In this document: piece by piece, positions 471-19,755 of the stretch
How the letters are laid out: the number at the start of each line of letters is the position of its first letter
Position numbering within the stretch: the first letter of the stretch is position 1
From: an uncultured virus (IMG/VR IMGVR_UViG_3300011008_000093)
Lineage: Duplodnaviria > Heunggongvirae > Uroviricota > Caudoviricetes
Length of the DNA stretch: 20,000 nucleotides
Reading direction: 5' to 3' (one strand)
Virus record (IMG/VR): IMGVR_UViG_3300011008_000093
Program-made: the position numbers and the translations under genes
The notes under the pieces: model-generated
Seen by the model: the letters and a program-made list of their open reading frames with translations, nothing else
What the model was told of the DNA's origin: nothing
Database searches by the model: none

Positions 471-777
471 GATACAACCCTCCAACCGTCAGAATCAGCC
501 GGGGATAGTTCACCTCGACCTTGGAAATTTTCCATTTTGAATTCATAAAGGTCACATACCGCATCTTGTGAAAATTCTGTCTGGCAAAGGGATCGGCAAG
601 AATGCTGATCTCGTTGGTAATGTTGATATCATCGTTCACCGAATCGCCAGTCTGCATCTGGCGTGTATTCCGGGTCAAATCCCCATAATAAGGATGCTCG
701 ATGATTTGTTCCACCCAGACGCCAGGCGCCGTTTCCACCGTTTCCGCATAACCTACCGATCCATAAAACTTTGCCAT
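460..777 (-). CDS. Head-closure / head-tail joining protein
   Basis: 105 aa, beta-rich ('MAKFYGSVGY...ETAPGVW...ISILADPFA...W.I..VEV.YPRLILT'). It sits directly after the capsid gene and has an AAGGAG RBS. Confidence 0.65.
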   Translation of the reverse strand: MAKFYGSVGYAETVETAPGVWVEQIIEHPYYGDLTRNTRQMQTGDSVNDDINITNEISILADPFARQNFHKMRYVTFMNSKWKISKVEVNYPRLILTVGGLYHES

Positions 778-796
778 TCAATTAACTCCTTATCGA

Positions 797-2734
797 TTAG
801 CCATTATCGCTGCTGCCGCTGCCACTGCCACTGGAGGCAGTAACAGGCTCTTCCAGAGCGATCGCAGAATTCACGCGGGTCAGAGCGCCGCTGATCCGGG
901 TTTCAATCAGATACTTCTCCTTGTTGAAGTCAATATCGAACTGATTGAACCGGGTAATCTCGCCGCCCTTGACAGAACCAACGGTATAGTCCGTCAGATT
1001 AACGAACAGACCCAGCAGCCTGTGCTGAGAAGCATCGTCTGCGTCGGTCCGAGTCAGACCTGCGAACTGTTCGGCGGTATACAGATTGCCCACGTTCAAA
1101 GCAGCCGCCAGATCGGCTCTGGTGTTATAGATCCGCCGGCCGTTCATATCCCGAGCCAGAAGCATCACATTGACCAGATGCGGCGTGCAGAAGAAGTCCG
1201 GCGTACCGGTGCCCTTATACTGCTCCCGAGCATACATAGCTGCGGTGATGATCGCCTCGGCATAGATGTAATTCTCACCAAAGTTATTGGCCGTATTTTC
1301 ACCGTTCAGACTCTCGGCCGCCTCGTCAATATCCACATCATAGTGGATGGTATAGGTCTCATCATCGTTCCAGATGGAGCGGACATGATCTTCGGAGATC
1401 TTATAAGGATCGCTGTCGCCGCGGCCGTCGCCAATCATGATGGCAATAGCGATCTCCTCATTCAGAATCTCCCGCATGGCCTGATACTGATACTCCACTA
1501 CGTCAAAGTCAGTGATGTCCAGAATGTCGTCCCGGTTCAGAGCATCCAGCACGTAGATAGTCTGGGGATCGGTGGTGCGGTTAATAGCCTTGGTATTGGC
1601 GGCCAGCTGCTTCTGTGTGGTCTTCTTATAGCCGCGGCCCCGCAGCGCATCTACTCTGGTGTCCACCTGACGGGTACGGATCCGACCAAAGGGGCTCTTG
1701 TTGACCTTCTGCATGACCACGTTCACCCAGCCCTGGTCGCGGGTGACCAGCTCGGGAGCACCGCTGCGGACATCCTTATAATCCGGAAACAGACGATCGA
1801 TATTGTCAATACCATGGGCCAGTTCATTCTGTTCCATATAAATGTCCAGGGCATCCCGCAGACTGCCCACGCTCTTGCTCTTGGCCAGTTCGATGATCTT
1901 GGCCCGATCCTCGGAATGGATCAGAACGTCATTCTTGTTCTCTTCCGCTTCAAACACATTATGCTTCATAGTTTTTTGTCCTCCTTCAGACTTTTCAGAT
2001 TTATTGTCGGAATCTTCTTCCTCTTCTTTCCCTTCATCGGCCGCTTCTTCCAGAGCCGCGCCGATCATGGCATAAACGACCGTCTTCTGCTTTTCCGTCA
2101 GTGTGTCGAATACGTCCTGCAGAGTCTCCCCTTCGGAATCCTCTTCAGAAGTCTGTTCTTCCTTCTCTTTGTCCTCGTCTGCACCTGTTTCTTCCGAGTC
2201 GTCCTTCTCCTCTTCTTCCTTTTCCTTTTTGGGTGGAGAAGCAGGCTTCTCTTCGGCATGATACAGACTGATGGTCTCACCGGTACCCAGGATCATTTCT
2301 TCCTCGGTCCCATCGTCTCCATGAGCCATATCGATAAAATCAATAAAGGCCCCGGGATTTGCTCCCGCGACCACCAGACTCACTTCTTTGATATCCCCGT
2401 GCATTACATCCTTGTTGGGTGTCTGCTTCAGACCATTGGCATAAATGGACAAGGATTCCACGTCCCCGTGCTGAACCAGGGCTTTAGCCGCCTTGCCGCT
2501 TTCCGTGTCATTGAAAAAGCAATAGGCATAAACACCGTCATCCCGGTTTTCCAACAGGGCATGACCAAGAATATTGGTCGGTTCATCATGGCGATGATTC
2601 CAGACCAGCGGTACAGTCTTTCCGTCACAGTGCTTGAATGCGTCTTTTCGGATCGTCCGTCCATCCGCGCATACAAGATCGTTTCGGGTTGCCCAACCGC
2701 TGAAGTCATAAGCATGCTCCATTTTGAACTTCAT
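797..2734 (-). CDS. Prohead protease-scaffold-major capsid fusion protein (HK97-type)
   Basis: 645 aa. The N-terminus resembles the HK97 prohead protease (FSGWA, VPLVWNH.H, LSI, EVSLV..GANPGA). An acidic low-complexity scaffold/linker follows, then a capsid-like C-terminal ~340 aa (FDIDFNKEKYLIETRISGAL). It follows the portal gene. Confidence 0.88.
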   Translation of the reverse strand: MKFKMEHAYDFSGWATRNDLVCADGRTIRKDAFKHCDGKTVPLVWNHRHDEPTNILGHALLENRDDGVYAYCFFNDTESGKAAKALVQHGDVESLSIYANGLKQTPNKDVMHGDIKEVSLVVAGANPGAFIDFIDMAHGDDGTEEEMILGTGETISLYHAEEKPASPPKKEKEEEEKDDSEETGADEDKEKEEQTSEEDSEGETLQDVFDTLTEKQKTVVYAMIGAALEEAADEGKEEEEDSDNKSEKSEGGQKTMKHNVFEAEENKNDVLIHSEDRAKIIELAKSKSVGSLRDALDIYMEQNELAHGIDNIDRLFPDYKDVRSGAPELVTRDQGWVNVVMQKVNKSPFGRIRTRQVDTRVDALRGRGYKKTTQKQLAANTKAINRTTDPQTIYVLDALNRDDILDITDFDVVEYQYQAMREILNEEIAIAIMIGDGRGDSDPYKISEDHVRSIWNDDETYTIHYDVDIDEAAESLNGENTANNFGENYIYAEAIITAAMYAREQYKGTGTPDFFCTPHLVNVMLLARDMNGRRIYNTRADLAAALNVGNLYTAEQFAGLTRTDADDASQHRLLGLFVNLTDYTVGSVKGGEITRFNQFDIDFNKEKYLIETRISGALTRVNSAIALEEPVTASSGSGSGSSDNG

Positions 2735-4016: not shown

Positions 4017-4523
4017 TTATACGTTTACCTTGTTTAACTGGGTTTGCCGATATGCCACTCTTCCCGAAGTCCAGACACCCCGACGAAGCTGATTCATGTT
4101 ATAGTTCTCATCCGCAAGCGCCATCATAACGCCAACTTCCCCACGCTTTGCCACGAATCGGACCACACGACCAGAGGGAGCGCGTATATCGGTCACTTTG
4201 CTTGACATCACTTCGGCCATTTTCTGGTTGTAAGCCATAATTGCGGCGGAACTCAACTTTCCATTGGATTTAAAAGCCCCGGGAGTATTTACAATCGCGT
4301 TGGCAGCACCCTTCATTTCTTTGGAAGAAGCTTTTTCTGCGCGGCGAGTAATTTTGTCGTTGTTCTTTCTGGCCCAGTTTTCATCCTTACGTTCCAGCCG
4401 TCTTCGACCGGCTTCCGTCAGTGTTCCATCCGCATTCTGGTATCGCCTGACGCCCCATTTCATTCCGAGTACACCATAATGAATAAGCTCATCAGTCGAC
4501 TTATACGAGTCTTGCCGATTCAA
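4017..4523 (-). CDS. Basic phage protein with N-terminal HYGVLGMKWGVRR motif (putative internal virion protein)
   Basis: Likely TTG start at 4523 after GGGAGG. It carries ELIHYGVLGMKWGVRRYQNADGTLT, paralogous to the N-terminus of 7372..7881. Confidence 0.75.
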   Translation of the reverse strand: MNRQDSYKSTDELIHYGVLGMKWGVRRYQNADGTLTEAGRRRLERKDENWARKNNDKITRRAEKASSKEMKGAANAIVNTPGAFKSNGKLSSAAIMAYNQKMAEVMSSKVTDIRAPSGRVVRFVAKRGEVGVMMALADENYNMNQLRRGVWTSGRVAYRQTQLNKVNV

Positions 4524-4537
4524 GCTGCTCCCTCCCT

Positions 4538-5590
4538 TCAAATATAATAAATCGCCTTGAGACTTCCCGGCAACCATTCAAAGATCATAAATCGTTTATG
4601 ATCTCCCACATATCCTTCGTCTTCAGACCATTGATCAGTCACACCATTTCTGCTCAGTCTTCGGATCATGACTCCATACAGATCCCCTTCCGCCTCGTGA
4701 TGAAGGTGTCCGGCATGAATCTCCCGGACAGTCGACTTGGAGAAAAACTCCGGAAATTCGATTGTGAACTGACCTCTCAGATCGTTCATCTTATTTTTTG
4801 TGTAATAACCATGGGTCAGGCCAATAAAGCACCTGTTCCAATAGATGCATTTTCGCTGCTTCATCCGGTCATCCACCTGAACCTGAGGGTAATGATCCTT
4901 CAACATCTGCACGAAAGCCCATGCCAGACTTTCGTCATGATTACCTACGCTGTAAATCAGATTTACATCCTCGCACTGCCGAAGACAGGCTTCGATCACA
5001 CTGTACCAGATTTCTTTTGCTATCTGCCAGGCAGCGGTAATATCAACTTTCTCAATCTCTCTGCCCGAAGCGGTCCTACCCCGAAAATCATCATTGTGGA
5101 ACATATCCTGTCCGACGACCAGATTGATCTGCTGCCACTTCTGCCGCTCAATGATTCCCAACAGTTGTTGAATACTTTCCGTATGATCTGACAAAGGAAG
5201 ATGCATATCAAATAGAGGAATCTCCAGCATACCGATCCCATCCCCGCTCTTTGCCTCAATTCTGATCGGCTCCGCATTCTTATGGATTGCATTCAGCAAG
5301 TCGTCCCACTGGCAATCATCCAAAGCCTGCTTGATCCACGCCTGAACAATCTCGCCCTGGCTGTTAACCTGAACCGTAGCATTGTGAGCGGTGAACCCTT
5401 CATATGTGCCCCGTTCCAGCGTGGTGGGATCCGGGAACATTTTATGCCGCCATTTTCCCAACATCCGCCGAAATGTCTCATAACTGGTATTGGGATATAC
5501 CTCGTGGTACACATTTCGATAAATTTCTTTCGGCTTCTGACCTGCGTTGTAAGCATCCACACATTGTTTCTTGATTCCGATATCGATCAC
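4538..5590 (-). CDS. Calcineurin-like metallophosphoesterase with N-terminal HTH-like region
   Basis: All five metallophosphoesterase motifs appear in order: DMH, GQDMFH, GNHD, THG, GHLH. An AAGGAGG RBS precedes it. Confidence 0.8.
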   Translation of the reverse strand: MIDIGIKKQCVDAYNAGQKPKEIYRNVYHEVYPNTSYETFRRMLGKWRHKMFPDPTTLERGTYEGFTAHNATVQVNSQGEIVQAWIKQALDDCQWDDLLNAIHKNAEPIRIEAKSGDGIGMLEIPLFDMHLPLSDHTESIQQLLGIIERQKWQQINLVVGQDMFHNDDFRGRTASGREIEKVDITAAWQIAKEIWYSVIEACLRQCEDVNLIYSVGNHDESLAWAFVQMLKDHYPQVQVDDRMKQRKCIYWNRCFIGLTHGYYTKNKMNDLRGQFTIEFPEFFSKSTVREIHAGHLHHEAEGDLYGVMIRRLSRNGVTDQWSEDEGYVGDHKRFMIFEWLPGSLKAIYYI

Positions 5591-5613: not shown

Positions 5614-7362
5614 TTAGTCAAATGCTTCATAATTGTGTTTATATGCGATATAGGCGTCCATCATAGCTGCTACCGCGTCAATCTTTTGATCTGATCGTTT
5701 TTTGAACAGTTTTCGGTTTCCGTTGGTGTCTTCTATGGTAATGCAGTTGCCCATGGAAAACGTCATCAACTCCTCATCGAAGATCAGCATCCGCTCTTCC
5801 GAAAGCTTCTTTAATTCTCCCAAAGGAACCGATTCCGTTTTTGCGCCCTGAATCACTTTTTCAATCCCAAACGGGCCGTTTTCCGATTGCCATCGTTCCA
5901 CAAACTCTTTTGCGTTATAAGGGTCATACCCCAAGGTCCGTACATCATATCCGGAATGAATAATATGGTCATCCAGATCGTCGTACACCTGCATCATATC
6001 CAGAACCGTCCCCTCCATAACAATTAAACTCCCTTCCGCCATAAAGTCTTCGTACTTGACTCGCATAGCAGCAGGGAGTTTATGAAGGGTAAGAGACGTA
6101 ATATAGTTTCTGGTTTTCACACCGAATGAACCGTCCCCCAAAGGAAATAAAAATGTAAAAGCACAAAAGTCATCGCCTTGTGAAAGGTCCGCCCCCAGGG
6201 AACAAGGAAGCTGCCAGAACTTTCGCTTCCTGTGAGGAAGCGTCTCTTCATATGTGAAGTAATATGTGTAGCCTTCCATAGGAAGTCCGAATCTCTTGGC
6301 CAGCATATCGTTTCTGGTTGCCGGTGCCGTTTCCGCTCGGTCCACATCCTTCTGATAGGCATCATAACTCACAGTCTTTCCCACATTCGGATTCGCCTTG
6401 ACCCACATATCCGGATAGGCCACCTCGTCCACAGAATCCAGCTTGTACCACCAGATGGAGATCTGAGGCTGAGGCGGGCCGACTCCTTGAAGGATATTCA
6501 TCAACTCCATTTTGATTGTATCGCCCGCGCCGTTTCTTACTGTGCCTTCCGAACTGGTTGCGATAATCAGATAGTCGTCCAATTTTGACGCGCCCTGCTC
6601 AATGGCGCCGATCACGTCTTCTCTGGCGTCTGCTGAAGACAGCCATTCGTCCACCGTTGCGAATTTGCATCGTAATCCCTGCAGCTTGTCCACAGACATG
6701 GGGCGAACCTCAATAATCGATCCGGAGATAAAATTTTCAATTCCCTTTTTGGTGGATGCCAGCTTCACCCGATTGGCAGCGCTCCCGCTGGTGTTCTGAA
6801 TAGACCCCTCGGTCATAAACTGAAACAACGGACCTTTGGCCCTTGTAATTGCGGTCTTGATCGGGTTAATAATTTCTTCCGCCTGTTTCATGGTGGGAGC
6901 CGTTGTGATCTGATGGGTCGTAGCACCGTCTACAACCAGTCCATATGCCTGAATACAGGAACCGTATAAGGATTTTGCCGCACCTCGTCCCACGATCAGA
7001 TATTGTTTGTTGGTCAGCCGCTTCTTGATTTGTTTGGTGACGTATCGTCCGCCATAGCCGTCTTTGTTAGGCACATACACCGACCGGGATTCAAAGTAAT
7101 ACCATCCAAAGACTTCTTCGCCCCACAGCTTAAAGCTGTCCAGCAAATGCAGATCAGATCCGTCCGTCAACGTCAGCTCATTCTCACAAAACGCGATCCA
7201 ACCTTCCACCGCCCGATCGTCGTAATAATACATAGGATCCTCGATCAACGCATCGATCCGTTCCATTTCCAGGGCCACTTCTCTGCAGACCGGTATCTCG
7301 CCCCGGATCACAGAATCCCGAAATATACCATAGTATTTAGGGACTGCGGTGTTCGATAACAT
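5614..7362 (-). CDS. terL: Terminase large subunit
   Basis: 582 aa with Walker A-like GRGAAKS, Walker B 'ATVDEW', coupling motif 'ATSSEG', and RNase H-like nuclease motifs 'GADLSQGDDF', 'YDPYNA' and 'KIDAVAAMMDA'. Confidence 0.93.
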   Translation of the reverse strand: MLSNTAVPKYYGIFRDSVIRGEIPVCREVALEMERIDALIEDPMYYYDDRAVEGWIAFCENELTLTDGSDLHLLDSFKLWGEEVFGWYYFESRSVYVPNKDGYGGRYVTKQIKKRLTNKQYLIVGRGAAKSLYGSCIQAYGLVVDGATTHQITTAPTMKQAEEIINPIKTAITRAKGPLFQFMTEGSIQNTSGSAANRVKLASTKKGIENFISGSIIEVRPMSVDKLQGLRCKFATVDEWLSSADAREDVIGAIEQGASKLDDYLIIATSSEGTVRNGAGDTIKMELMNILQGVGPPQPQISIWWYKLDSVDEVAYPDMWVKANPNVGKTVSYDAYQKDVDRAETAPATRNDMLAKRFGLPMEGYTYYFTYEETLPHRKRKFWQLPCSLGADLSQGDDFCAFTFLFPLGDGSFGVKTRNYITSLTLHKLPAAMRVKYEDFMAEGSLIVMEGTVLDMMQVYDDLDDHIIHSGYDVRTLGYDPYNAKEFVERWQSENGPFGIEKVIQGAKTESVPLGELKKLSEERMLIFDEELMTFSMGNCITIEDTNGNRKLFKKRSDQKIDAVAAMMDAYIAYKHNYEAFD

Positions 7363-7371
7363 TGAGAATAC

Positions 7372-7881
7372 CTACTCTTTCTGCTCATTACTTTTTTTTT
7401 TCTCTGTTTGAGTAAACTGACCTTTTGCCACTGTTAAACCAAGATCTTTCCGATTAACTTTTTCCCCGGAAACAACTGAATATGCCGCATACAAGGCCGC
7501 ACCAGTTAACGCGGTAGTAAGAACAGTCTTTCCGACATTACTGACAATATCGTATGTAAATTTTTTTCCAGGACTGACCTCCTTATCAGTCAGCTCTCTT
7601 AATTCCCTTTCCATTTTCAATCTATTAATCTTTACTCTTAATTCATCATCACTTAATGTTCCGCGATTTTTAGAATCCGAGCGTTTCTGTCGTTCTGAAT
7701 TAACCTGCTCTTCCGATTTGGTCTTTCTCTCAGATTTCTGTTTCTCATTTTTGACTTTATTATCAGACTTCTGATAGCGCTTTGCACCTTCGGATGTCAA
7801 AGAGCCGTCTTTATTCTGGTATCGCCTGATGCCCCATTTCATCCCGAGAACGCCATAGTGATACAGTTCGTCTTGGTTCAT
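7372..7881 (-). CDS. Basic phage protein with N-terminal HYGVLGMKWGIRR motif (putative internal virion protein)
   Basis: MNQDELYHYGVLGMKWGIRRYQNKDGSLT, then 'LSDDELR..INRL.ME' and a hydrophobic helix near the C-terminus. The start overlaps the upstream stop (ATGA). Confidence 0.78.
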   Translation of the reverse strand: MNQDELYHYGVLGMKWGIRRYQNKDGSLTSEGAKRYQKSDNKVKNEKQKSERKTKSEEQVNSERQKRSDSKNRGTLSDDELRVKINRLKMERELRELTDKEVSPGKKFTYDIVSNVGKTVLTTALTGAALYAAYSVVSGEKVNRKDLGLTVAKGQFTQTEKKKSNEQKE

Positions 7882-8261
7882 ACCTCTTCCCCCTCTTCTT
7901 CGGATTTAGCTACGGGATCCGCAGCCACATACAACCGCCATTCCAGTTCACTGATCTGCCGGTTTATGGCGTCCATGGCAGCGGAACTGAGCGGCGGATC
8001 AAATAGAAGCCGAACCTTAAGGTATATGTATGACTTCACCATAGAGAACTTATTAAAACCAACTCCATCTGTTATAAACTGATCCCAGGTTTCGTCTCCG
8101 TCTTCAAGAGAAAAGCCGTTTACCGGTCCGACTCCAAGCTGCCCGAGAATAGAAAACACACTGTTGATGTGCATGATAATATCGGCATCAAAGTGTGTAT
8201 AGTTTTCTTCAATTCCCAATAACTTCTTCACAGAAGTCAGAATATTTTCCGTAATCTCCAT
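7878..8261 (-). CDS. Head-tail connector (gp6-like) protein
   Basis: 127 aa with the pattern 'ILTSVKKLLGI...FD.DII.HIN..FSIL.QLGV...V.SYIYLKVRLLFDPP', typical of helical gp6/gp15-type connectors. Confidence 0.7.
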   Translation of the reverse strand: MEITENILTSVKKLLGIEENYTHFDADIIMHINSVFSILGQLGVGPVNGFSLEDGDETWDQFITDGVGFNKFSMVKSYIYLKVRLLFDPPLSSAAMDAINRQISELEWRLYVAADPVAKSEEEGEEV

Positions 8262-8279
8262 AAACCAGCCCCCTTTTTT

Positions 8280-8531
8280 TTAATGATTGATTGTGATGAA
8301 CTCCTTTAAACAATAACCTTCTGCTCCGGCAGCACTGCAAATCTTATAAAACAGGTCCGTCGAAGCAGCAGGATCAATCAAAACTTCCGAACCCCTCTGC
8401 AAAATTGTAACGATAGACGTTGGATCCTTTGGGTTTTCCAAAACGCTGAGATGACTGCAGTTTGCAACAACACCAAATGGCTTTTCAGCTATGACTGCTT
8501 TGATCAGGTCGTTCTGCTGATTGGTATCCAT
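8280..8531 (-). CDS. Small protein with bacterial SH3-like domain
   Basis: 83 aa; 'GVVANC..L.V.E.P......IV..L.RGSEV.I.......FYKI......EGYC.KEFI' fits an SH3b pattern. AGGAGG RBS. Confidence 0.6.
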   Translation of the reverse strand: MDTNQQNDLIKAVIAEKPFGVVANCSHLSVLENPKDPTSIVTILQRGSEVLIDPAASTDLFYKICSAAGAEGYCLKEFITINH

Positions 8532-8571
8532 ACCTATGTCCTCCTGTTATGTAATAGTCATATAACTGACA

Positions 8572-8645
8572 TGGCCCCTCCAAGGATCGAACTTGGAATC
8601 CCACGATTATAAGTCGTGTGCTCTAACCTGTTGAGCCAAGAGGCC
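8572..8645 (-). tRNA. tRNA-Ile (anticodon UAU), CCA not encoded
   Basis: Minus strand reads GGCCTCT TG GCTC AACAGGTTA GAGC A CACGA CTTATAA TCGTG GGATT CCAAG TTCGATC CTTGG AGGGGCC A. This is a full cloverleaf with anticodon TAT at 8609-8611 and discriminator A. Confidence 0.93.
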
Positions 8646-8649
8646 GCGC

Positions 8650-9265
8650 CCTGGTTTTTAAGGAACCAGGAAACCTCTCTATTTATACCCCGCCTCTGGA
8701 TGGCGGCAAAGATGGCGGTTATAAAAAGGGACCTTCGCAGGCGATGTCCTTGTAACTGACCCGCCGCAGTTTGTGCAAGCCCACAATTTATATGTCGCCG
8801 TGGGCAAGCGGCAATTTTTGTCTGTCAGAACCTTTCCTCCCAGGTGTTTGCGCTCTTTTTCACCCTGCCCCTTTTTACGGGACGTTCTGACAAATTTTGT
8901 GTCGGCCAGTCATCTGCATTGCCGCCGTCGTGCCAACAACAAACGACGCAGAATCCTGGTTGCGAAAAATAGGACGAAATCTTGGCAAAACCCATCCCGC
9001 AAAAACACATCCTATCGGCCTACTGCGCTTTTTTAGTTCGTAAATATGGGGTTCTATCTTTTAGCAGCGTTTGCCCTCATATAACTGGTTTTTCTGTAGC
9101 TATATGAGCCGGGCCTGTTTATTGGAACCCCGTGAAACGTCATTCTCCCCGTCGCTGTGAATGCGGGCGCGACCCGCAGATCCTCGCTTTAACCGGAGGT
9201 GGCATCGGCCTCACAGCTATTCAAACAAGTACGCCGGGAAATGGAATGGCGGACCTGCTTGCGTC
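8650..9265 (-). ncRNA. Putative structured non-coding RNA region (series of hairpin/multibranch domains)
   Basis: About 600 nt with no convincing ORF and many long stems: TGTCAGAAC/GTTCTGACA (8823-8892), GGGGTTC/GAACCCC (9048-9131), CTCATATAGCT/AGTTATATGAG, ATAGGATG/CGTCCTAT, GCTGTGAG/TTCACAGC (9154-9217). Most imperfect pairs are G-U on the minus strand. Confidence 0.6.
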
Positions 9266-9275
9266 TTTTTATGTT

Positions 9276-9695
9276 TCAATGCCTCCAGGGGCAAGTATCC
9301 CCGGGACGGCGTGCAATGGGTTCAGCAATCAGCATATTCTCATCCCCGTAATGAATCGCCAGATGTGTATCATGAATCGTTGTGATCAGATACTCCGGAT
9401 CCAGAATTTTTTCATTTCGGTCCCGAATATCTTCCGGAAAGATCGGGTTCATATGATGAATAATCACTTTACCGTAGATCTCCCGGCCCTCGATTCCAAG
9501 ATCACATCCATTGTCTCTTGCAATCACAAAATCGCGAACTCGCTTCCATTCCGGGGAACGATAAAACGCCTGATTCATATATCGGTCAAAACCAAAAGTC
9601 TCCGCTCCGACAACCCCGTTCAAACGAAGATACTCATAGCGTTCTTTGAACGTCTCAAGACGAACCAGATCAGAATAACACTTAATAGTATTCAT
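9276..9695 (-). CDS. HNH endonuclease (terminase-associated)
   Basis: Likely start MNTIK at 9695, overlapping the upstream stop. Motifs: 'FYRSPEWKRVR..VIARDNGCD', 'IIHHMNP', 'YLITT..DTH.AIH'. It lies next to the packaging genes. Confidence 0.85.
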   Translation of the reverse strand: MNTIKCYSDLVRLETFKERYEYLRLNGVVGAETFGFDRYMNQAFYRSPEWKRVRDFVIARDNGCDLGIEGREIYGKVIIHHMNPIFPEDIRDRNEKILDPEYLITTIHDTHLAIHYGDENMLIAEPIARRPGDTCPWRH

Positions 9696-10056
9696 CGTCT
9701 TCTCCGTCTTCTCCGTCTTCTTCCTCATCATCGCTGCCGGCATATTTTTTCATATATTTCATGGCTTTTTCATACATCTCCTCGATCCGTGCTGCCGACT
9801 TGATGGCTTCCGCTTTTGCTGCAGCCAATTCCGTCTGCCTCTCCAGGAGTTCCTGTTCCAACCTCGCCTTGGTAGACCCTCGTTTGACCAATTCCGTAAT
9901 TAACTGAGAAGAAGCGGTTCCGTCTCGCAGCCTTTGTTCGGCAAGATCCATAGCCAAAGCTATCATGCGGTTCTCCTGAGCCTCGGGTGTCAAGGTAGCC
10001 CGAGCCGATGCTCTACTCTTAGTTGTGGTCTTTGTCGTTTTCGCAGTTTTGGCCAC
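9682..10056 (-). CDS. Probable terminase small subunit / helical DNA-binding protein
   Basis: GTG start at 10056 after AGGAGG. It has a basic N-terminus, a coiled coil and an acidic tail, and is the first gene of the packaging cluster. Function is inferred from position only. Confidence 0.5.
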   Translation of the reverse strand: MAKTAKTTKTTTKSRASARATLTPEAQENRMIALAMDLAEQRLRDGTASSQLITELVKRGSTKARLEQELLERQTELAAAKAEAIKSAARIEEMYEKAMKYMKKYAGSDDEEEDGEDGEDDEYY

Positions 10057-10124
10057 CTTTCTGCCTCCTCTCATTCTGTAATAGATTAGTTTTCATTTCA
10101 AAAATATGTGTTTCAATATAGTTT

Positions 10125-10276
10125 CAGGACGGTATTTGAAAAAGCCCGCATAAGCCGACATAACTGCAAGTGGAGAAAAAGCTTCATGGACAGTTCGTAT
10201 TATGGAGGTATGAACGAAAAAGAGCATCTTGCAACCAACACAGTCAACCTTGCGGGCTTGTTCAAACACCGCCCTG
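10125..10276 (-). ncRNA. Putative ~150-nt long-hairpin RNA element
   Basis: Minus-strand CAGGGCGGTGTTTGAACAAGCCCGCA pairs with TGCGGGCTTTTTCAAATACCGTCCTG. The stem continues through AGGTTGAC/GTCGGCTT and TGGTTGCAAG/CTTGCAGTTA, with many G-U pairs available only on the minus strand. Confidence 0.6.
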
Positions 10277-10296
10277 CCAATCAAAAATATCAATAG

Positions 10297-10390
10297 ACCC
10301 AAAAACCCTCCCCAAAATATCCCTCCGGAGATTTTTCAAAGACCGCCGCGATGCAAGGGGGGTGGGGTTTCTGCGGGACCCCCTATACCC
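10297..10390. other. Candidate DNA packaging (cos/pac) site region
   Basis: A GC-rich island with C- and G-runs (CCCTCCCC, CCCTCCGGAG, CCGCCGCGATGCAAGGGGGGTGGGG, GGGACCCCC) next to a very AT-rich tract. It lies just upstream of the small terminase/HNH genes. Positional inference. Confidence 0.4.
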
Positions 10391-10578
10391 TTATTTATAT
10401 TTCTATAGCCCTGTTATATTATATTTTTATATTTTATAATTGTTCATAGGACACCGAAATACTAATGAAAGGAGTATTCTATTGAGAAGCCCAGGATCAT
10501 AGCCCTAATGAATTAGAAATAAGAGAAAAAATTTAAGCAAAATAACATATTCATACAATTCTATAGATCTTATAAGCT

Positions 10579-10842
10579 CTATGCACTCACAAGAGTTTCA
10601 GACGTTTTATTTAATACGACTTTCTTGTAAATACCAAGAGGATCGTATTTGATAATATCGTCTATTGCCCGCTCCACTTCCTCATCGTTTTCAGCAGGAG
10701 ATAGCTGATCAGAAGTTCGAGCGATTCGAGCCAAATAAGAACAGGAATGATAACCTTTACCTTCATCAAACCGATACCAGGCATCAAACTCATTAAAAGG
10801 GTCATAAGGATTGTCAATTGTGGTTATTGCGCATTGTGCCAT
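10579..10842 (-). CDS. Hypothetical phage protein (TTIDNPYDPF motif)
   Basis: 87 aa ORF with GAAAGGAAG RBS and protein-like composition; function unknown. Confidence 0.75.
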   Translation of the reverse strand: MAQCAITTIDNPYDPFNEFDAWYRFDEGKGYHSCSYLARIARTSDQLSPAENDEEVERAIDDIIKYDPLGIYKKVVLNKTSETLVSA

Positions 10843-10874
10843 AAAACGCTCACTTCCTTTCTGTAAATATGATT

Positions 10875-10895
10875 AAAAAAAGGGCACTGGGCCCT
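10875..10895 (-). terminator. Rho-independent terminator after RNA polymerase gene
   Basis: Minus strand AGGGC-CCAGT-GCCCT followed by TTTTTT, a few nt after the stop codon of 10901..13663. Confidence 0.6.
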
Positions 10896-10900
10896 CAGGG

Positions 10901-13663
10901 TCAGGGGTTCAGGATTCGGGACACAGTAGAAGCAGACAGGTTCAACGCCTCCGCGATCTGGGCGTTGGTGTATCCGGAGTTGGCCATGGAACGAATTCTT
11001 GTTTGACGAGCTTCAGAAACTTCCGTTCTTGTTCTTGGTGTCGCTCGTTCACGAAGCGCGTCTTGATCGGCATAACGAAGAATCTCTTGCAAAGTTGTGT
11101 CGCTGATTGCGCCAGCTTGGATCGCTTTCCATTCGCCATCACTGATTGTGATGCGCGAACCTTTTCCATCAGCTCCGACTTGAACTCTTGCTTCATTGAT
11201 TGCAGCTCTTCGAATCTTTGAAATCTCGTCTTTGTCCGTGATATTGTTGTCTTCGATCTTGGCGCGAACTCGACTGTTTGCAATACGATGCGCTTCCCGT
11301 TCACGAGGTGCATTCATCTGCGCAACTTTAAGAGCACTTGTCAAGCGATCCACTTCAGGCTGATAAGTTTTGGCTGCACTGGCGGAACGAATCAGCCTTG
11401 GAGTTGCCAGATACTCAAGACGTGCTTCATTGGCCATAGCCTTCATCCGGTTGGCATAGTCTGCATATGCTTCTTCCTGAATGGTACCGGAGGACAACTT
11501 GTGAACATCGTCGATGACGGAAATCAGCTTCACTTTTTCGGTGGCTTCCACCGTATTACCCTTCTTATCGGTATAGGTCCGGCCGGACTCCTTATAGATC
11601 ATTTCACCCGTATCAGGGTCTATCCTCCCACTCCCCTGCCGTTCAGGGACATAGGTGTCCTGCTTATGGCGGGACAGCAACGTTGTGGCACCGCCCCGTT
11701 CTTTGCCGTCACCATCGGTATACCCCTGCCACTTCTTCCGGAGGGTGAGGATGTCATTATCCAGCTCCGACTGCTTATAGTCCAGTTTATGTTTAGCTGC
11801 ATCTATGACCACCATACTATGGCGTACGGCCTTTGTGATTTCGTCTTCTCCGGCACCTCGAAGCGTCATATCCGTGATCAGATTTGATATGACACCCATT
11901 TCCTTTTGGGTAGCTTCTTTTGACATCAGTTTTACGCCGGTCCTGCCTTCGGTAGAGTATTGGACCTTTGGATCGAAACCCTCCAAGCCTTTCAGCGCAG
12001 GCGTACTTTTGATGTTGACTTTACCCCCTGTGGGGATGACAACAACCTGATCCCCGTCAAAGTCAGCGCCAGACAGGCGCTCTGCCACATCCGGATGAAT
12101 TCCTACGGCATCCCGAATATTTTTTCCGAGAATCGAAATTGCCGATGGATTCTTGTTGTTTACAGTCAGGATCGGAATCTCAAAGGTACCCCCATGGGGG
12201 TAACGAACCAAAGCAACTTTTTCGCCATCCTTGTAATTGGGGGCATAGATCTCCGTTGGCTTGATTTTGGTAAGAGGAAGGATGACCTGAGTGCTCTGAC
12301 GGGGAAGAGCTGCCGCCTGGAGGTGAACCGCGGCAGAATCACATTCATCGGCGAAGTCCATGAGCAGTTTCTTCTTAATAGTAGGGTTAGTCAGAGATTT
12401 GATTTCATTAAACTCGTCCCTGGCATCGGCATACGTCAAATCCAGCTGACTCTGAATCAGTTTGATCGGCTGCTTGGATAGAAACTGAGAAGAAAGATTT
12501 CTGCTCATCTTATCCCAGTCGCCTTCTTCTTTCAGCTTATTGATAGCAGATAAAGACATCTTTTCACCGGTAATAGGGTCTGTATAGTTTCCCTTGGGAT
12601 CGGGATAGTAGCTCTGTCCGTTGGCTTTGATGTAAGCGCCAAAGGGATTGTCCGGGTCATTTTCCTTAATTGGTTTCAAGACATCCATCTTAGGCGTTTC
12701 AGAAGACTTGTTAGTGTTGAAGATAATGTCGACTCCTTTCGGAAAGTCCTTGTCGTCCCCATACATAGCCATACCTTTGAGATAATGTGTACCATCCACC
12801 ATAATCCGAACCTGCGCATAATTTGAATTACCGAGGTCCAGATCTTTTATGCCGCGACGAATCTCGATGACACCGTCTTTGGCTTTTCCGCCTTCATCGC
12901 CATAAAGGATCTTTACCCGATCCGAGCTGATACTGGCGGGATATTCCCTTTTGTCCCAGCTCTTACCACCATCTACAGAGTGGTAATCTCCAACAGACTT
13001 GATCTCGTCCAAATTTACGCTGCCGCCGGCGATCCCCCGTTCCTTGTCGGGAGGCTGATAAAAATGATTCTGTTCGATTTCCGGAACGGATATCACTTTT
13101 GTAGTGGTCCGCTTAGTCGGGTCGTTGGTATTGGGAACGCCAACGCCGAACCGGTTGTAACCCTGGGTTTCCAGAATAAACAAAGCCTCTTCCAACACAC
13201 CGGAGCTTACGCCAAGCTCCCGTTCCACACCGATGCCTACGTCAAGCGCGCCTTTTTTTTCAAGTTCTTTCTTCAAGATTTCCGCGGTCTGGGCAGCCTG
13301 ATTTTTGTTCGTTGAAGTTGTTTCGTTCAGAAGCGCCCGAACAGAAGAATCATTGTTATAACCCATAATCTGAGCGATTTCATCCAGGGTTTTGCCATCC
13401 TCCCGGAGGGCCTGAGCTCTGGCAGCCAGCAGAGCGCGGCGTTCATGCTTTGCTACCCTGACCTGCATGCGAAGATCGGTGGTGGACATTTTTAATTCTG
13501 CAGCAATTTCTTTTTCACTCTTTCCCTCACCCTGAAGTTCTTCCACCCGGGCAAGAAAATCCTTGCCATGCTGATAAGGGTTTTCACCGGAACCCCATGG
13601 ATAACGTCCAGAACGTCGTTTAACGCCATAATGCATTAAAATGTCTTCCTGTATAGGATTCAC
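10901..13663 (-). CDS. Single-subunit two-barrel (DPBB) RNA polymerase, YonO / eukaryotic RdRP-like, with HTH-like domains at both ends
   Basis: Catalytic loop LSGADFDGD preceded by VRYP. Other motifs: DG..EI, YAQVRI....YLKGM (cf. the RdRP QIR..KG motif), MGVISN, HSMVVIDAAK (cf. RdRP HS.AVD.PK). HTH-like segments: KSEKEIAAELKMS, KTLDEIAQIMGY, GYTNAQIAEALNLSASTVSRIL. GTG start after AAGGAGG. Confidence 0.85.
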   Translation of the reverse strand: MNPIQEDILMHYGVKRRSGRYPWGSGENPYQHGKDFLARVEELQGEGKSEKEIAAELKMSTTDLRMQVRVAKHERRALLAARAQALREDGKTLDEIAQIMGYNNDSSVRALLNETTSTNKNQAAQTAEILKKELEKKGALDVGIGVERELGVSSGVLEEALFILETQGYNRFGVGVPNTNDPTKRTTTKVISVPEIEQNHFYQPPDKERGIAGGSVNLDEIKSVGDYHSVDGGKSWDKREYPASISSDRVKILYGDEGGKAKDGVIEIRRGIKDLDLGNSNYAQVRIMVDGTHYLKGMAMYGDDKDFPKGVDIIFNTNKSSETPKMDVLKPIKENDPDNPFGAYIKANGQSYYPDPKGNYTDPITGEKMSLSAINKLKEEGDWDKMSRNLSSQFLSKQPIKLIQSQLDLTYADARDEFNEIKSLTNPTIKKKLLMDFADECDSAAVHLQAAALPRQSTQVILPLTKIKPTEIYAPNYKDGEKVALVRYPHGGTFEIPILTVNNKNPSAISILGKNIRDAVGIHPDVAERLSGADFDGDQVVVIPTGGKVNIKSTPALKGLEGFDPKVQYSTEGRTGVKLMSKEATQKEMGVISNLITDMTLRGAGEDEITKAVRHSMVVIDAAKHKLDYKQSELDNDILTLRKKWQGYTDGDGKERGGATTLLSRHKQDTYVPERQGSGRIDPDTGEMIYKESGRTYTDKKGNTVEATEKVKLISVIDDVHKLSSGTIQEEAYADYANRMKAMANEARLEYLATPRLIRSASAAKTYQPEVDRLTSALKVAQMNAPREREAHRIANSRVRAKIEDNNITDKDEISKIRRAAINEARVQVGADGKGSRITISDGEWKAIQAGAISDTTLQEILRYADQDALRERATPRTRTEVSEARQTRIRSMANSGYTNAQIAEALNLSASTVSRILNP

Positions 13664-13678
13664 AGTTCTTCCTCCTTA

Positions 13679-14233
13679 TTATTCCTGTTCTTTTAAATTG
13701 TTTATGATTTTGTCAAATGTAATGATTCGATCCATGATGGGAAAAATATCTTCGATGGTCGGGTTGTGGCAAAGAATTTCATCGTTCTGATAGATCCGAA
13801 GTTCCATGTCGATCTCATTGGGCTTTGTATCGTACTCCAGGCAAAACAGAGCGGCATAGATCATGAGCTGCTCCATGTGGGCCGGAGTTTCTCCGGTTTT
13901 CAAATCATGGATTCGAAGCATATTATTCCGGAATGAAATCGTATCCGCGGTTCCGAAACAATTGGGTGAATAATAAAGCACCTGCTCGGGAGTCATCTTG
14001 TACCCGATGGCGTCATTAACATACATATTCAACGTCTTTCCGGAACGAGGAAGCTTCTGGCCCAAAGTGATACACTGTGCCGCGAAGGCATGAAGCTGAG
14101 TTCCCCTCTGAGCGGCTCTCCACTTGGCATAGGTATCCGCCACTTTCTCTTCGTCATAGTTGATCCAATGATAACTGCTGGCACTGAGAAAGGCGTGATG
14201 CCCCTCAAGATTCGAATGCCTGTTCCAATTCAT
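13679..14233 (-). CDS. PD-(D/E)XK exonuclease (Cas4/DUF2800-like)
   Basis: Motifs HAFLSAS, GT.LH, PEQ, GTAD, IHDLKTG and QLMIYA match the Cas4/RecB-like nuclease motif series. Confidence 0.8.
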   Translation of the reverse strand: MNWNRHSNLEGHHAFLSASSYHWINYDEEKVADTYAKWRAAQRGTQLHAFAAQCITLGQKLPRSGKTLNMYVNDAIGYKMTPEQVLYYSPNCFGTADTISFRNNMLRIHDLKTGETPAHMEQLMIYAALFCLEYDTKPNEIDMELRIYQNDEILCHNPTIEDIFPIMDRIITFDKIINNLKEQE

Positions 14234-14504
14234 GCAGAACTTCCTCCTTGTTCTCAGGGCAAATAAAACGGGAAAAAGACATCTCGTTCATTTTGCCGAC
14301 GTAATACTCCTGATTGGGTCGTTTCTTCGCGGCGCTCGATTTTTTGCATTCCAAAGAAGCCCATTTGTTTTCATAAAGGACCAGCAAATCAGGAATTCCC
14401 TGAATCTGATCCATCTTGAACACCATACAGCCCGGAAAACGATTCTTGATCGTCTTGATCAGACGGTCTTGAAACCCGCTTTCCAGGTTTGCACTTCTGC
14501 TCAT
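14205..14504 (-). CDS. VRR-NUC / Holliday-junction-resolvase-like nuclease
   Basis: Likely start MSRSA (14504) after GGAGG. Motifs E..FQ, GIPDL, LECK and PNQ..Y. Confidence 0.8.
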   Translation of the reverse strand: MSRSANLESGFQDRLIKTIKNRFPGCMVFKMDQIQGIPDLLVLYENKWASLECKKSSAAKKRPNQEYYVGKMNEMSFSRFICPENKEEVLHELEQAFES

Positions 14505-14517
14505 ATATGCCTCCAAA

Positions 14518-15303
14518 TTACAGTACATCGATACAAGCGTTGATTGCCGTTTTTAAACGGTTGAAATAGCTTGCCTCAACAACGTCTCCGGTTTTTCTTA
14601 AATCGGCATTGGCATAGTACCAATTACCTGTCTTTGCATAATAAGTTCTGCTGATATTCCAGATAAGCGTGTTGTACATAGCAGCCGTAAAAACATCTCC
14701 GCTGCTGACTCTCATGTTTGCTAAGGGAACATCGACTTCTATCTCTTCATCATAACTGGAAAAATCTGAGGAAGAGTCCCAAACAACTCCGGCGGCAGTC
14801 ATAACTTCCTCTACTTTATCGAGAAAATCGTTCCACTCATTCGCAGTCAGAATTTCAAACGAATCATTATCATCCAAAGCCGCCTGGACTTCAGCGGACC
14901 AGTCCCAAGGATCGATTGGGCTTTCGAGTCTTGGAATTATTGCTACATAAGCATATCTTCCGCCATTTCCCTGGGCTAAAAGCCATGATACATATGTGGT
15001 TGCTGATGGATTACTTGCATGTGTCCACTGATAGTCCGCAAGCTGGTCGTTAAGAGCTTTAACAAATCCGTAGGACGCATCTGCTTCTGCGGTATCTGTT
15101 GTATAAATACCGCAAAAATATTCGCTAAACTCACCGGCACCTGAAGATGGCGTAGTATTTAGCACAAAATATTGTCCAATATCTAACCCCATACTATAAA
15201 AATTTCCGCTTTGTACTGAATATTCAGACACGTCGTCTACTGTTAATTTCACAGTACAATCGGTCGAACTTGTCACACGTATTTGAAGATATAAATCCGC
15301 CAT
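14518..15303 (-). CDS. Acidic hypothetical protein with tail-fibre-like C-terminal repeats
   Basis: ORF 14518..15315; the likely start is MADLY (15303) with GGAG upstream. C-terminal pseudo-repeats: LTANEWN, GDVFTAAMYN, GDVVEASYFN. Confidence 0.6.
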   Translation of the reverse strand: MADLYLQIRVTSSTDCTVKLTVDDVSEYSVQSGNFYSMGLDIGQYFVLNTTPSSGAGEFSEYFCGIYTTDTAEADASYGFVKALNDQLADYQWTHASNPSATTYVSWLLAQGNGGRYAYVAIIPRLESPIDPWDWSAEVQAALDDNDSFEILTANEWNDFLDKVEEVMTAAGVVWDSSSDFSSYDEEIEVDVPLANMRVSSGDVFTAAMYNTLIWNISRTYYAKTGNWYYANADLRKTGDVVEASYFNRLKTAINACIDVL

Positions 15304-15370
15304 GATAAACTCCATTTCTAATCAAAAAAAATAGAAAAAGCAGCAAATATCGTGACATATTTACTATTCT

Positions 15371-15398
15371 CTCCATAAGAGAGGCTGTTTTTTTCGCG
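15371..15398 (-). promoter_or_regulatory. 28-bp conserved motif, copy 1 (candidate phage RNAP promoter)
   Basis: CGCGAAAAAAACAGCCTCTCTTATGGAG. It aligns without gaps to copies 2 and 3 and lies upstream of the nuclease-RNAP operon. Confidence 0.65.
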
Positions 15399-15410
15399 CA
15401 AAGAAAAAAT

Positions 15411-15442
15411 AAAAGAAAGAGGCCGTGAAGCCTCAATCTTTT
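15411..15442. terminator. Rho-independent terminator (probably bidirectional)
   Basis: AAAAGAAAGAGGC-CGTGAA-GCCTCAATCTTTT hairpin flanked by A/T runs, directly after the stop of 15445..15651. Confidence 0.7.
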
Positions 15443-15444
15443 TT

Positions 15445-15651
15445 TTACATTTTATCAACTTTTAATAGTTGTTTTCGAAGACCTTCAACTTCATAATTCA
15501 ATCTGTCGTTTTCCAGCCACAACTGTTTGCAATCTTCACTTTTCACATCATATCCATGACTCCAACCTTTCCAATAACCTCTCTTATAGATAACGTAACT
15601 AAAAATACCAGAGCCAAAGCATCCAACCAAAAATGAAATTACATAAATCAT
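15445..15651 (-). CDS. Small membrane-anchored coiled-coil protein
   Basis: 68 aa with an N-terminal hydrophobic helix, GY..GW..GY and a C-terminal coiled coil. AGGAGG RBS. Confidence 0.75.
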   Translation of the reverse strand: MIYVISFLVGCFGSGIFSYVIYKRGYWKGWSHGYDVKSEDCKQLWLENDRLNYEVEGLRKQLLKVDKM

Positions 15652-15683
15652 AATTATAACCTCCTGGATGAATTATACAGTAT

Positions 15684-15711
15684 CTCCATAAAACAGACTG
15701 CAAAACATGCG
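15684..15711 (-). promoter_or_regulatory. 28-bp conserved motif, copy 2
   Basis: CGCATGTTTTGCAGTCTGTTTTATGGAG, ending 33 nt upstream of the 15651 start codon. Confidence 0.7.
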
Positions 15712-15718
15712 AAAAAAA

Positions 15719-15754
15719 AAAAGAGAAAGAGCCCCGAAAGACTCTTTCTCTTTT
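15719..15754. terminator. Rho-independent terminator (probably bidirectional)
   Basis: AAAAGAGAAAGAG-CCCCGAAAGA-CTCTTTCTCTTTT inverted repeat with a long T run on the minus strand. Confidence 0.75.
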
Positions 15755-15827
15755 AATCGTTACTCATACTCTTACAAATGATCAGTATGCCCAGCACAAT
15801 CAATAGAATTCCAAGTACCATAAACAT
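15753..15827 (-). CDS. 24-aa hydrophobic peptide (not in ORF track)
   Basis: MFMVLGILLIVLGILIICKSMSND* with AAGGGG RBS, bracketed by motif copy 3 and a terminator. Confidence 0.6.
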   Translation of the reverse strand: MFMVLGILLIVLGILIICKSMSND

Positions 15828-15854
15828 CTACCCCTTGTTAAAAATATGAATTTT

Positions 15855-15882
15855 CTCCATAAAACAAGGTGTAAAATGTGCG
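15855..15882 (-). promoter_or_regulatory. 28-bp conserved motif, copy 3
   Basis: CGCACATTTTACACCTTGTTTTATGGAG, ending 28 nt upstream of the 15827 start codon. Confidence 0.7.
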
Positions 15883-15888
15883 GATCAC

Positions 15889-16416
15889 TCACCTTCCTAT
15901 TTTATCGTTGATATAATTTTGGTATCCGATACGTTTCATCATCCAGGAAAAATCCTCATCTTCCGACCAACCATCATCAAGGCGAAGACGATTTGTCATC
16001 ATTAACGCCAAATCATAATCTTCATTTTGTATTGCGTCTTCTATTTCCAGACTAAGTTCATTCAAGTACGCCACTTGCTCATTGTGTGCCTTCAATTTTA
16101 AATAACGGGTTCGTGCAACATACCCCCAGACAACTGTATTAAATAATAGTACCGCAATGATAAGTGCTATGACAGCTTTTTTATTGAATGATTTTTCTTT
16201 TTGTTCATGCGCGTAAGTCATTTTTTTATCTTCAAGACTATATTCATTTTTAAGTTTGACCCGTTGTGTTTTTTCTTTTTCCACAAAGACATCGGCAATA
16301 CCGTCAAAATCTATTGACAGTTTATTTCCGCAGTAAGGACAGTATACCTGCAGCCGATCGAGATTAAGATCCAATTCTGCACCGCAATGATTACAAATCA
16401 TTTCAACAAGCCGCAT
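15889..16416 (-). CDS. Zinc-ribbon membrane protein
   Basis: N-terminal CNHCG...CPYCG zinc ribbon, a coiled region and one transmembrane helix (AVIALIIAVLLFNTVVWGYV). AAGGAG RBS. Confidence 0.75.
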   Translation of the reverse strand: MRLVEMICNHCGAELDLNLDRLQVYCPYCGNKLSIDFDGIADVFVEKEKTQRVKLKNEYSLEDKKMTYAHEQKEKSFNKKAVIALIIAVLLFNTVVWGYVARTRYLKLKAHNEQVAYLNELSLEIEDAIQNEDYDLALMMTNRLRLDDGWSEDEDFSWMMKRIGYQNYINDKIGR

Positions 16417-16430
16417 GTTTTTATACTCCT

Positions 16431-16586: not shown

Positions 16587-16675
16587 GATCCTCTTTCTCC
16601 CAACAGCATTTATTTTAAAAATATCCACTGACAGTCTACCACATCATAGAAGAAAAAGGAAGCGCAAAAAATCCA

Positions 16676-16945: not shown

Positions 16946-16965
16946 TCCATCCGTTTTCACTCTTT

Positions 16966-19712: not shown

Positions 19713-19755
19713 AGTGTACATCTCCCTGGTTAGGTTTTTTTACGTAATCCATGAT

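Follow-up and report, generated by a model that had tools for sequence, protein, structure and literature searches.

In the uncultured Caudoviricetes virus IMGVR_UViG_3300011008_000093 (IMG/VR), of which a stretch of 20,000 nucleotides was analysed (hereafter the window), a minus-strand gene encodes a single-chain RNA polymerase (RNAP) of the two-barrel type. We consider it moderately probable that this enzyme is DNA-dependent and sigma-independent and that it reads a 25-bp motif, here called class I, from which it would transcribe the non-structural genes together with its own operon. The existence of the protein family is not new; the class I motif and a conserved N-terminal tag are the additions made here. 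The open reading frame (ORF) of 920 amino acids had been correctly delimited in a first-pass annotation made from the sequence alone, and an AGGAGG ribosome-binding site lies just 5' of its start codon.

10901..13663, minus strand: single-chain two-barrel RNA polymerase gene (920 amino acids, GTG start; PHROG 4291; homologue of phage 1706 orf75 and FP_oengus AUV56548.1)

Residues 3-919 of the protein match positions 6-906 of 909 in the profile of PHROG 4291 (1189 bits, E value 0), also termed "HTH domain-containing putative RNA polymerase", the signature protein of the Lactococcus 1706/FP_oengus/actinophage AM-AU-AW-BI-CC-DJ lineage; NCBIfam contained no family above its cut-off. In INPHARED, 250 records match at 251 places, 249 of them over at least 80% of the polymerase length. 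They are tailed double-stranded DNA (dsDNA) phages, mainly of Arthrobacter, Gordonia, Streptomyces and Lactococcus, with one full-length polymerase gene per genome. FP_oengus is the best match (52% identity), 1706 orf75 reaches 37%, and the window shares with this family the full-length match, the gene order, the DxDGD loop and helix-turn-helix (HTH) domains at both termini. The family is large: at least 8000 candidates were scored and all passed, and 894 clusters at 50% identity reach an E value of 1e-30. In GTDB, a relative is encoded in 308 stretches, the closest (73-78%) in Oscillospiraceae and other Clostridia. The nearest virus record is a 6.7-kb fragment without the polymerase gene. In one relative (G003), a stand-alone protein of 196 amino acids (L208, 1215-1805), located among the non-structural genes, resembles only the part of the polymerase that follows the catalytic loop, without DFDGD, and is a possible regulator or decoy; a 190-residue BFVD entry matches the polymerase model over 92 columns at 38%.

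The novelty that the first-pass annotation implied for this architecture was overstated, since it is already a published prediction: Koert et al. described an HHpred match to RNA-dependent RNA polymerase (RdRP), the DxDGD loop, HTHs at both ends and the same gene order (bioRxiv 10.1101/842583), and the phage 1706 protein was listed as one of five YonO-like families, apart from the SPbeta family (PMC2919709). In their accessible parts, both papers are without a structure model, winged helix, promoter, N-terminal tag or virion link. The accompanying remark that no biochemistry of the architecture was known agrees with the literature we searched, which lacked most subscription papers and supplements and yielded none; the available portions of PMC5513430, PMC5883640, PMC13432834, PMC5759034, PMC8525569 and PMC11385150 contain nothing on a 1706-type enzyme. 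As anticipated, homologues are annotated as RdRP: PHROG 4291 carries the label "RNA-dependent RNA polymerase", and a 2026 paper accepted the RdRP label without question in a related Streptomyces phage (PMC13587820). A provisional assignment of the lineage to Ca. Heliusvirales was dropped; the accessible marker list of PMC11283538 is without such a gene, and our literature search returned no paper joining Heliusvirales with "RNA polymerase".

The polymerase displays the motifs Q284-V-R286...K296-G297, R487-Y-P489, G532-A-D-F-D-G-D538 and H615-S-M-V-V-I-D621-A-A-K624. The first three had been read correctly before, while the fourth, given as HS.V.D.AK, was one residue short between V and D. Conservation was assessed across 150 aligned homologues with 46-87% identity to the window polymerase (16 rows from the window and 120 listed close matches, 134 from 150 listed representatives). 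Q284, R286, K296, G297, R487, P489, D534, D536, D538, D621, K624 and H625 are identical in all 150, so that the catalytic motifs are not a product of chance.

12050..12064, minus strand: catalytic loop D534-F-D-G-D538, three Asp invariant in 150/150
12509..12946, minus strand: first barrel region (beta-like), about residues 240-385, limits approximate, with D263 and Q284-x-R286...K296-G297
12026..12301, minus strand: second barrel region (beta'-like), about residues 455-546, limits approximate, with R487-x-P489

As in other two-barrel nucleotide polymerases, the DxDxD triad is preceded by R-x-P in the beta'-like double-psi beta-barrel (DPBB), and the beta-like DPBB holds a conserved aspartate (D263, 148/150) and two basic residues (R286 and K296, 150/150), which by their order would map to D709/R738/K743 of QDE-1. 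An AlphaFold2 model built from 84 sequences reached a mean predicted local distance difference test score (pLDDT) of 82.7 and a predicted template modelling score of 0.73, with low confidence for residues 8-34. Foldseek ranked QDE-1 first (E value 5e-9), followed by RDR2, the non-virion RNAPs of P23-45 and P74-26, gp96, the cellular largest subunits and, weakly, phi14:2 gp66 (E value 4e-3), and a BFVD search agreed with this ranking. The top VIA-align matches (Z 15.6-15.8) covered about residues 240-752 with 357-378 residues aligned at a root-mean-square deviation (rmsd) of 4.3-6.1. For QDE-1 (7y7s; Z 15.6, rmsd 4.5, 371 aligned), this range corresponds to residues 680-1186 and spans both barrels. 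P74-26 gp62 scored Z 13.4, and the RNAP largest subunits about Z 11 over ranges starting at residues 434-453. The first barrel alone, in a model of residues 33-400, matched QDE-1 with a Foldseek E value of 0.018 and was absent from the VIA-align list. On the basis of these models, the two-barrel fold is well supported, as the first-pass annotation had proposed.

Taken at its PHROG and RefSeq labels, the protein would be a true RdRP. The closest solved folds, QDE-1 and RDR2, would fit, as would a weak match of residues 525-631 to Pfam RdRP (PF05183; 13.2 bits, E value 0.037), which stays below the gathering score of 23.8 and leaves only the fold in common with the eukaryotic family; an RNA-mediated role was also floated in PMC2919709. 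We nevertheless regard this as extremely improbable: YonO and both P23-45 enzymes, the phage members of the fold, transcribe DNA, the four HTH-type modules, along with a DNA motif to match, speak for dsDNA, and the label was presumably transferred by homology. The previous description as a compact DNA-dependent phage RNAP stands for the fold and the intact catalytic set, and its DNA dependence is likely because the context is a dsDNA phage. The two DPBBs would hold Mg2+ at DFDGD and polymerise nucleoside triphosphates on a DNA template, like YonO and P23-45 gp64. Judged from the computed fold and residues, such DNA-templated polymerisation is highly likely.

Besides the catalytic core, the protein contains three N-terminal modules and one C-terminal HTH. 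The C-terminal HTH had been recognised in the first-pass annotation; near the N-terminus it counted two HTHs, and the winged helix that makes up the third module had gone unnoticed.

13466..13558, minus strand: HTH 1, residues 36-66 (model helices; generic HTH matches, Z 5.2-6.5)
13328..13435, minus strand: HTH 2, residues 77-112 (PHROG HTH matches; model helices; DeoR DNA-binding domain, Z 5.3)
13001..13324, minus strand: winged-helix domain, about residues 114-221 (best match TFIIIC tau138 eWH, Z 6.9, rmsd 3.4, 86 aligned)
10910..11014, minus strand: C-terminal HTH, residues 884-918 (Pfam HTH_23, E value 5.7e-7, above cut-off)

The stretches 36-66, 77-112, 117-166 and 884-918 are covered in 149-150 of the 150 homologues. 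In the model of residues 33-400 (pLDDT 90.4), the two HTHs and the winged helix gave generic matches that fell at Z 5-7 and never reached Z 8; sigma region 4 did not outscore response regulators. The C-terminal HTH exceeds the Pfam cut-offs for HTH_23, HTH_38, GerE, Sigma70_r4_2, HTH_24 and HTH_7; its Sigma70_r4_2 score (26.9 against a cut-off of 25.7) is surpassed by those on HTH_23, HTH_38 and GerE. On these models, "sigma-like" is not distinguishable from "any HTH". The fused HTHs that could, in the first-pass annotation, replace a sigma factor are thus present, while the case for sigma-independence comes from the class I motif, which is not of the sigma-70 type, rather than from the HTHs.

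Class I is a one-directional motif of the form CGCR-N6-DCA-N7-TWRTG, the seed pattern of which was our own choice from a reading of upstream regions. The window holds three copies, all co-directional, compared to 0.04 expected, and two of them directly follow terminator-like hairpins.

15374..15398, minus strand: class I copy 3' of the hairpin 15419-15434, heading the operon of a 265-amino-acid gene, VRR-Nuc-like endonuclease, exonuclease and polymerase; candidate promoter
15687..15711, minus strand: class I copy before a 68-amino-acid gene, 3' of the terminator-like hairpin 15719-15754
15858..15882, minus strand: class I copy after a 175-amino-acid gene (motif scan)

Among the named relatives, Pepy6 has 15 copies, oengus 13 (in its first 51 kb, one copy antisense), Untouchable 9, Mudcat 6, Scap1 3 and 1706 one, with 0.05-0.3 expected; 1706 holds a variant, of which a relaxed pattern finds 9 copies. 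A matrix trained only on these six genomes placed a site at most 2.5 kb upstream of the polymerase gene in all 64 IMG/VR loci with enough flank (80 fetched) and in 61 of 63 GTDB loci (80 fetched, 73 located by tag, 63 with flank), usually about 900-1000 bp upstream and before the endonuclease gene. There were 0 antisense matrix hits in both locus sets and 2 downstream hits in the IMG/VR set. Five further IMG/VR records, three of them complete, contain 8-14 copies each, nearly all on one strand. A strict scan of IMG/VR recovered more than 122 stretches; among the 80 listed, 78 carry a lineage gene in the available flank and 52 the polymerase. The spacing of the blocks is identical in phages of Actinomycetota and Bacillota hosts.

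A TANNNT hexamer in register occurs at 27 of 120 distinct IMG/VR sites and in 21 of 132 GTDB hits, and a 5/6 match to TTGACA at only 2 of 118 class I sites; this scarcity argues against recognition by host sigma-70. Following the logic of T4 middle promoters, host RNAP could still read class I if a phage activator occupied the upstream blocks; the protein would then be a polymerase active on other targets, and the function of its HTHs would be DNA or genome-end binding. Copies in Pepy6, Mudcat and Untouchable do contain a perfect TATAAT 13 bp downstream of the CGCRNN block. In gut members, however, TTTTAT and CTTTAT prevail as the last hexamer. The -11 A is missing from 93 of 120 distinct sites, despite a training matrix in which this base was favoured at the position (0.81); judged from these hexamers, we regard host recognition as distinctly improbable.

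The class I motif is hence our best candidate promoter for the polymerase, and sigma-free initiation at the motif, judged from its sequence and distribution, is probable. Its three blocks lie about one helical turn apart, which would suit the tandem HTH and winged-helix modules, and transcription of the non-structural genes and of its own operon would create a positive feedback loop. ATATTT was considered as a promoter signal and not used: it is strongly one-directional in three phages (sense against antisense: Pepy6 65 vs 0, Scap1 15 vs 0, Untouchable 64 vs 4), but not in 1706 or Mudcat.

While class I favours the non-structural genes, a second motif, TCAAAATG, favours the structural arm. It is the most enriched 8-mer downstream of the polymerase gene, with 99 sense and 0 antisense copies in 30 non-redundant flanks (229 kb), compared to 29 and 13 upstream (281 kb).

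6508..6515, minus strand: TCAAAATG copy inside the terminase gene (motif scan)
2720..2727, minus strand: TCAAAATG copy at the start of the capsid gene (motif scan)
533..540, minus strand: TCAAAATG copy inside the DUF7253 gene (motif scan)

At homologous terminase sites, ATCAAAATG is found exactly in 36 of 40 distinct cases, whereas codon usage predicts about 20%. Together with the strand bias, this makes TCAAAATG a candidate signal for structural-gene transcription and opens an alternative in which the enzyme would be a YonO-like late polymerase that is not part of the virion. Host RNAP would produce it early, and it would then transcribe the structural arm from TCAAAATG(G), with class I being read by another factor. 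The transcription of late genes by YonO (PMC5467207) and the position of the gene just before the cos site and the structural arm would be in line with this. On the other hand, TCAAAATG frequently coincides with a start codon preceded by a ribosome-binding site, and in one relative (G004) it is spread across both arms of the whole genome (49 sense vs 2), so that it may be an RNA-level or polarity signal. Moreover, this alternative would leave the non-sigma-70 class I motif without a reader and would not explain the N-terminal tag or the structural label of 1706 orf75 (both described below); the same enzyme could also read both motifs. Overall we consider such a late polymerase unlikely. TCAAAATG itself may be a late promoter for the polymerase, as in the YonO case, or an RNA-level signal.

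The N-terminus of the polymerase bears a tag that was absent from the first-pass annotation and that resembles elements of the head module.

13571..13639, minus strand: N-terminal tag, residues 9-31, L-x-H-Y-G...SGRYPWGSG..PYQ (pLDDT below 50; candidate head-loading or protease signal)
7372..7881, minus strand: head-module protein with DUF7211 tag, before the terminase (PF23847)
4017..4577, minus strand: head-module protein with DUF7211 tag, before the portal (PF23847)
797..2734, minus strand: protease-scaffold-capsid fusion (phrog_3270, PF04586)

Within the tag, H11 is conserved in 147 and G13 in all 150 homologues. Its first half, L-x-H-Y-G, is all that it has in common with DUF7211, as PF23847 gave no match on the polymerase at an E value of 0.1. 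Full DUF7211-type tags number 75 downstream of the polymerase gene (420 kb, structural arm) vs 4 upstream (610 kb). In the capsid fusion, all five histidines of the linker between protease and capsid domain stand in hydrophobic-x-H sites, the last of which (LAHGI) falls at the likely mature capsid start. Across seven capsid precursors, 41 of 48 linker histidines have a hydrophobic residue at -2, while in the rest of the 1706 proteins 84 of 262 histidines do (p 5e-12 by Fisher's test, the precursors not being independent), and six of the seven have such a site at the likely mature capsid start. Furthermore, EU081845 gives 1706 orf75 the label "structural protein"; orf7, which is labelled likewise, is the one remaining 1706 protein that carries a tag. 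In a relative (L027, 17197-17760), a head-module protein before the terminase, homologous to 7372-7881 of the window (E value 5e-5), bears the polymerase-type tag and not DUF7211. The 1706 structural labels reportedly go back to virion mass spectrometry by Garneau in 2008.

The likeness of LxHYG to the head-module tags and capsid sites and the 1706 label suggest that the enzyme may be packaged in the head. LxHYG would then be a head-loading tag that the enzyme has in common with DUF7211 proteins, probably trimmed after His by the prohead protease, and some of the enzyme in the virion would start transcription upon infection; on prophage induction, host RNAP would seed the feedback loop instead. 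On this circumstantial evidence, we see the chances that the polymerase is also carried in the phage head as evenly balanced. In T4, prohead cleavage follows Glu, while cleavage after His is proposed here. An analogy to LxHYG/DUF7211, without sequence likeness, is offered by the capsid targeting sequence of T4, a conserved short peptide through which otherwise unrelated internal proteins are loaded into the prohead (PMC3012670).

Several observations weigh against the proposal of a sigma-free, class I-reading and possibly packaged polymerase. Sequence likeness to solved polymerases is undetectable in protein and profile searches, which returned only HTH-level or designed-repeat matches; the closest folds are RdRPs of RNA interference, and the matches of the HTHs are generic. 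Motif and enzyme share a lineage, so that their co-occurrence does not single out the polymerase as the reader, and the loci behind the class I counts are related and partly redundant. The copies in actinophages and 1706 end in TATAAT or TATAGT and would be usable by a host sigma factor, and 16 of the 132 GTDB matrix hits, in 6 loci, lie downstream of the polymerase gene. Regarding packaging, 1706 orf62 and orf71 are labelled structural although they are untagged and lie outside the structural module, which means that contaminants may be among the proteins so labelled. The tag swap was seen once: of 67 distinct ORFs with the polymerase-type tag, that of L027 alone is complete and not a polymerase. 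Passage through a siphovirus tail would require an enzyme of 920 amino acids to unfold. Finally, some GTDB relatives sit inside complete bacterial chromosomes as prophages and oengus has an integrase, and an enzyme delivered by the virion therefore cannot be the sole route to start transcription.

In its broadest form, the proposal would describe a very large lineage across two host phyla whose transcription depends on one sigma-free polymerase of 920 amino acids. The enzyme would be loaded into a siphovirus head by a portable His-tipped tag that recurs in the processing sites of the capsid precursor, be ejected via the tail, recognise a three-block promoter via its fused HTHs, boost its own operon and, at a later stage, turn to TCAAAATG for the structural arm, with the 87-amino-acid neighbour or the uncleaved tag as a possible switch. 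As a whole, we regard this chain as conceivable but doubtful.

Compared to known enzymes, YonO of the Bacillus prophage SPbeta is alike in being a phage-encoded single chain of about 100 kDa with two barrels and an Asp triad. It provides the experimental precedent for DNA dependence and transcribes late genes after induction, with its promoter sequence left undetermined (PMC5467207); it differs as a member of a separate family according to PMC2919709. P23-45 gp64 (non-virion) and gp96 (virion) are single-chain siphovirus enzymes with promoter motifs of their own (bioRxiv 10.1101/2022.12.01.518664) and a similar fold (Z 13.4 to P74-26 gp62, 11.5 to gp64). However, at 12-14% identity, P23-45 employs two enzymes, one of which (gp96) is delivered by fusion to the tail tape measure, whereas in the window lineage a single full-length enzyme carries both the fused HTHs and the candidate head tag. 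QDE-1 and RDR2 are the best structural matches (Z 13.6-15.8 over about 340-380 residues), but they are eukaryotic silencing enzymes with 10-16% identity and match the core (232-761), not the HTH modules. The virion-packaged gp66 of phi14:2, a short-tailed phage, is also a two-barrel single chain (Foldseek E value 4e-3), but with 2166 residues it is more than twice as large.

How single-chain two-barrel polymerases find promoters without sigma was left open in the accessible text of PMC5467207. With its small enzyme, its sharply delimited candidate promoter and its phages in culture on hosts that are easy to handle (Lactococcus, Arthrobacter, Gordonia), the present family makes this question directly testable. 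If true, our proposal would correct how at least 250 phage records and thousands of metagenomic proteins are widely labelled ("RNA-dependent RNA polymerase" or "HTH protein"), and it would provide a compact orthogonal transcription system together with a head-loading tag.

The minus-strand gene order is NrdD, small genes, endonuclease, exonuclease, polymerase, an 87-amino-acid gene, HNH, connector, terminase, portal and protease-capsid fusion. The succession of endonuclease, exonuclease, polymerase and a small conserved gene at the right end of the genome is that of the 1706 type.

14205..14528, minus strand: VRR-Nuc-like endonuclease gene, conserved upstream neighbour (phrog_93; 73/73 loci with enough flank)
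13679..14233, minus strand: PD-(D/E)xK exonuclease gene, conserved upstream neighbour (phrog_3953; 75/76 loci)
10880..10896, minus strand: terminator-like hairpin and T-run directly 3' of the polymerase stop codon (consensus scan only)
10579..10842, minus strand: 87-amino-acid gene, phrog_4303, directly downstream of the polymerase in 66/66 loci with flank
10342..10350, minus strand: predicted cos site CGCGGCGGT, aligning with the record ends of 1706, Pepy6, Mudcat, Scap1 and Untouchable

The Mudcat gene at the endonuclease position is annotated as VRR-Nuc, and a homologue of the 87-amino-acid protein, which had no useful match in the ESM Atlas, occupies the same position in all six named genomes. 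For the cos site, the Pepy6 record has a 9-nt 3' overhang annotated, and the BI2 overhang is CGCCGCCCT (PMC11385150). Based on the predicted site, the polymerase would be the last-but-one gene of the packaged DNA. The fixed linkage to endonuclease, exonuclease and 87-amino-acid gene beside cos would also suit a protein that transcribes no genes, namely a primer-making or DNA-entry enzyme or a virion protein that mainly binds DNA, in each case acting together with the adjacent nucleases close to cos. This is very improbable, as the lineage encodes its own primase/polymerase, the full catalytic set is invariant and a lineage-specific promoter-like motif needs a reader.

Compared to the 1706-type family, the window differs by an inserted gene of 265 amino acids (14518-15315) at the operon head, between class I motif and endonuclease, which had no match in Pfam, PHROG or NCBIfam and no tblastn match in 91 loci. 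A G-run/C-run hairpin just before the predicted cos (10355-10385), conserved in form across the lineage, is probably a terminase-binding element. A CGCR half-site within it was rejected as a class I promoter, as many of the 20 loci whose region could be located lack it (the pattern failed to match in 29 of 51). A sigma-70-like TGAACA-17-TATAAT (10418-10446, minus strand) points across cos into the structural arm; a sigma-70 scan of 8000-17500 was at chance level (22 vs 17.2 +/- 4.0). A search for RNA records carrying 9000-17000 listed none. In the structural arm, a 750-bp gap holds a tRNA (8572-8645) with the anticodon TAT (ARAGORN: Ile), which is unusual in bacteria, and a 350-amino-acid phrog_704 nuclease-like gene (4538-5590) lies between terminase and portal. 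Further upstream, 16966-19413 encodes the anaerobic ribonucleotide reductase NrdD, which includes an ATP cone and, fused at its C-terminus, a glutaredoxin-like domain; this fits an anaerobic host. Upstream of NrdD, the scaffold stretch 2047-2145 of the capsid gene recurs twice in tandem at 19751-20000 (matching at 92% and 100% across 99 nt), representing either an assembly artefact or a real duplicated fragment.

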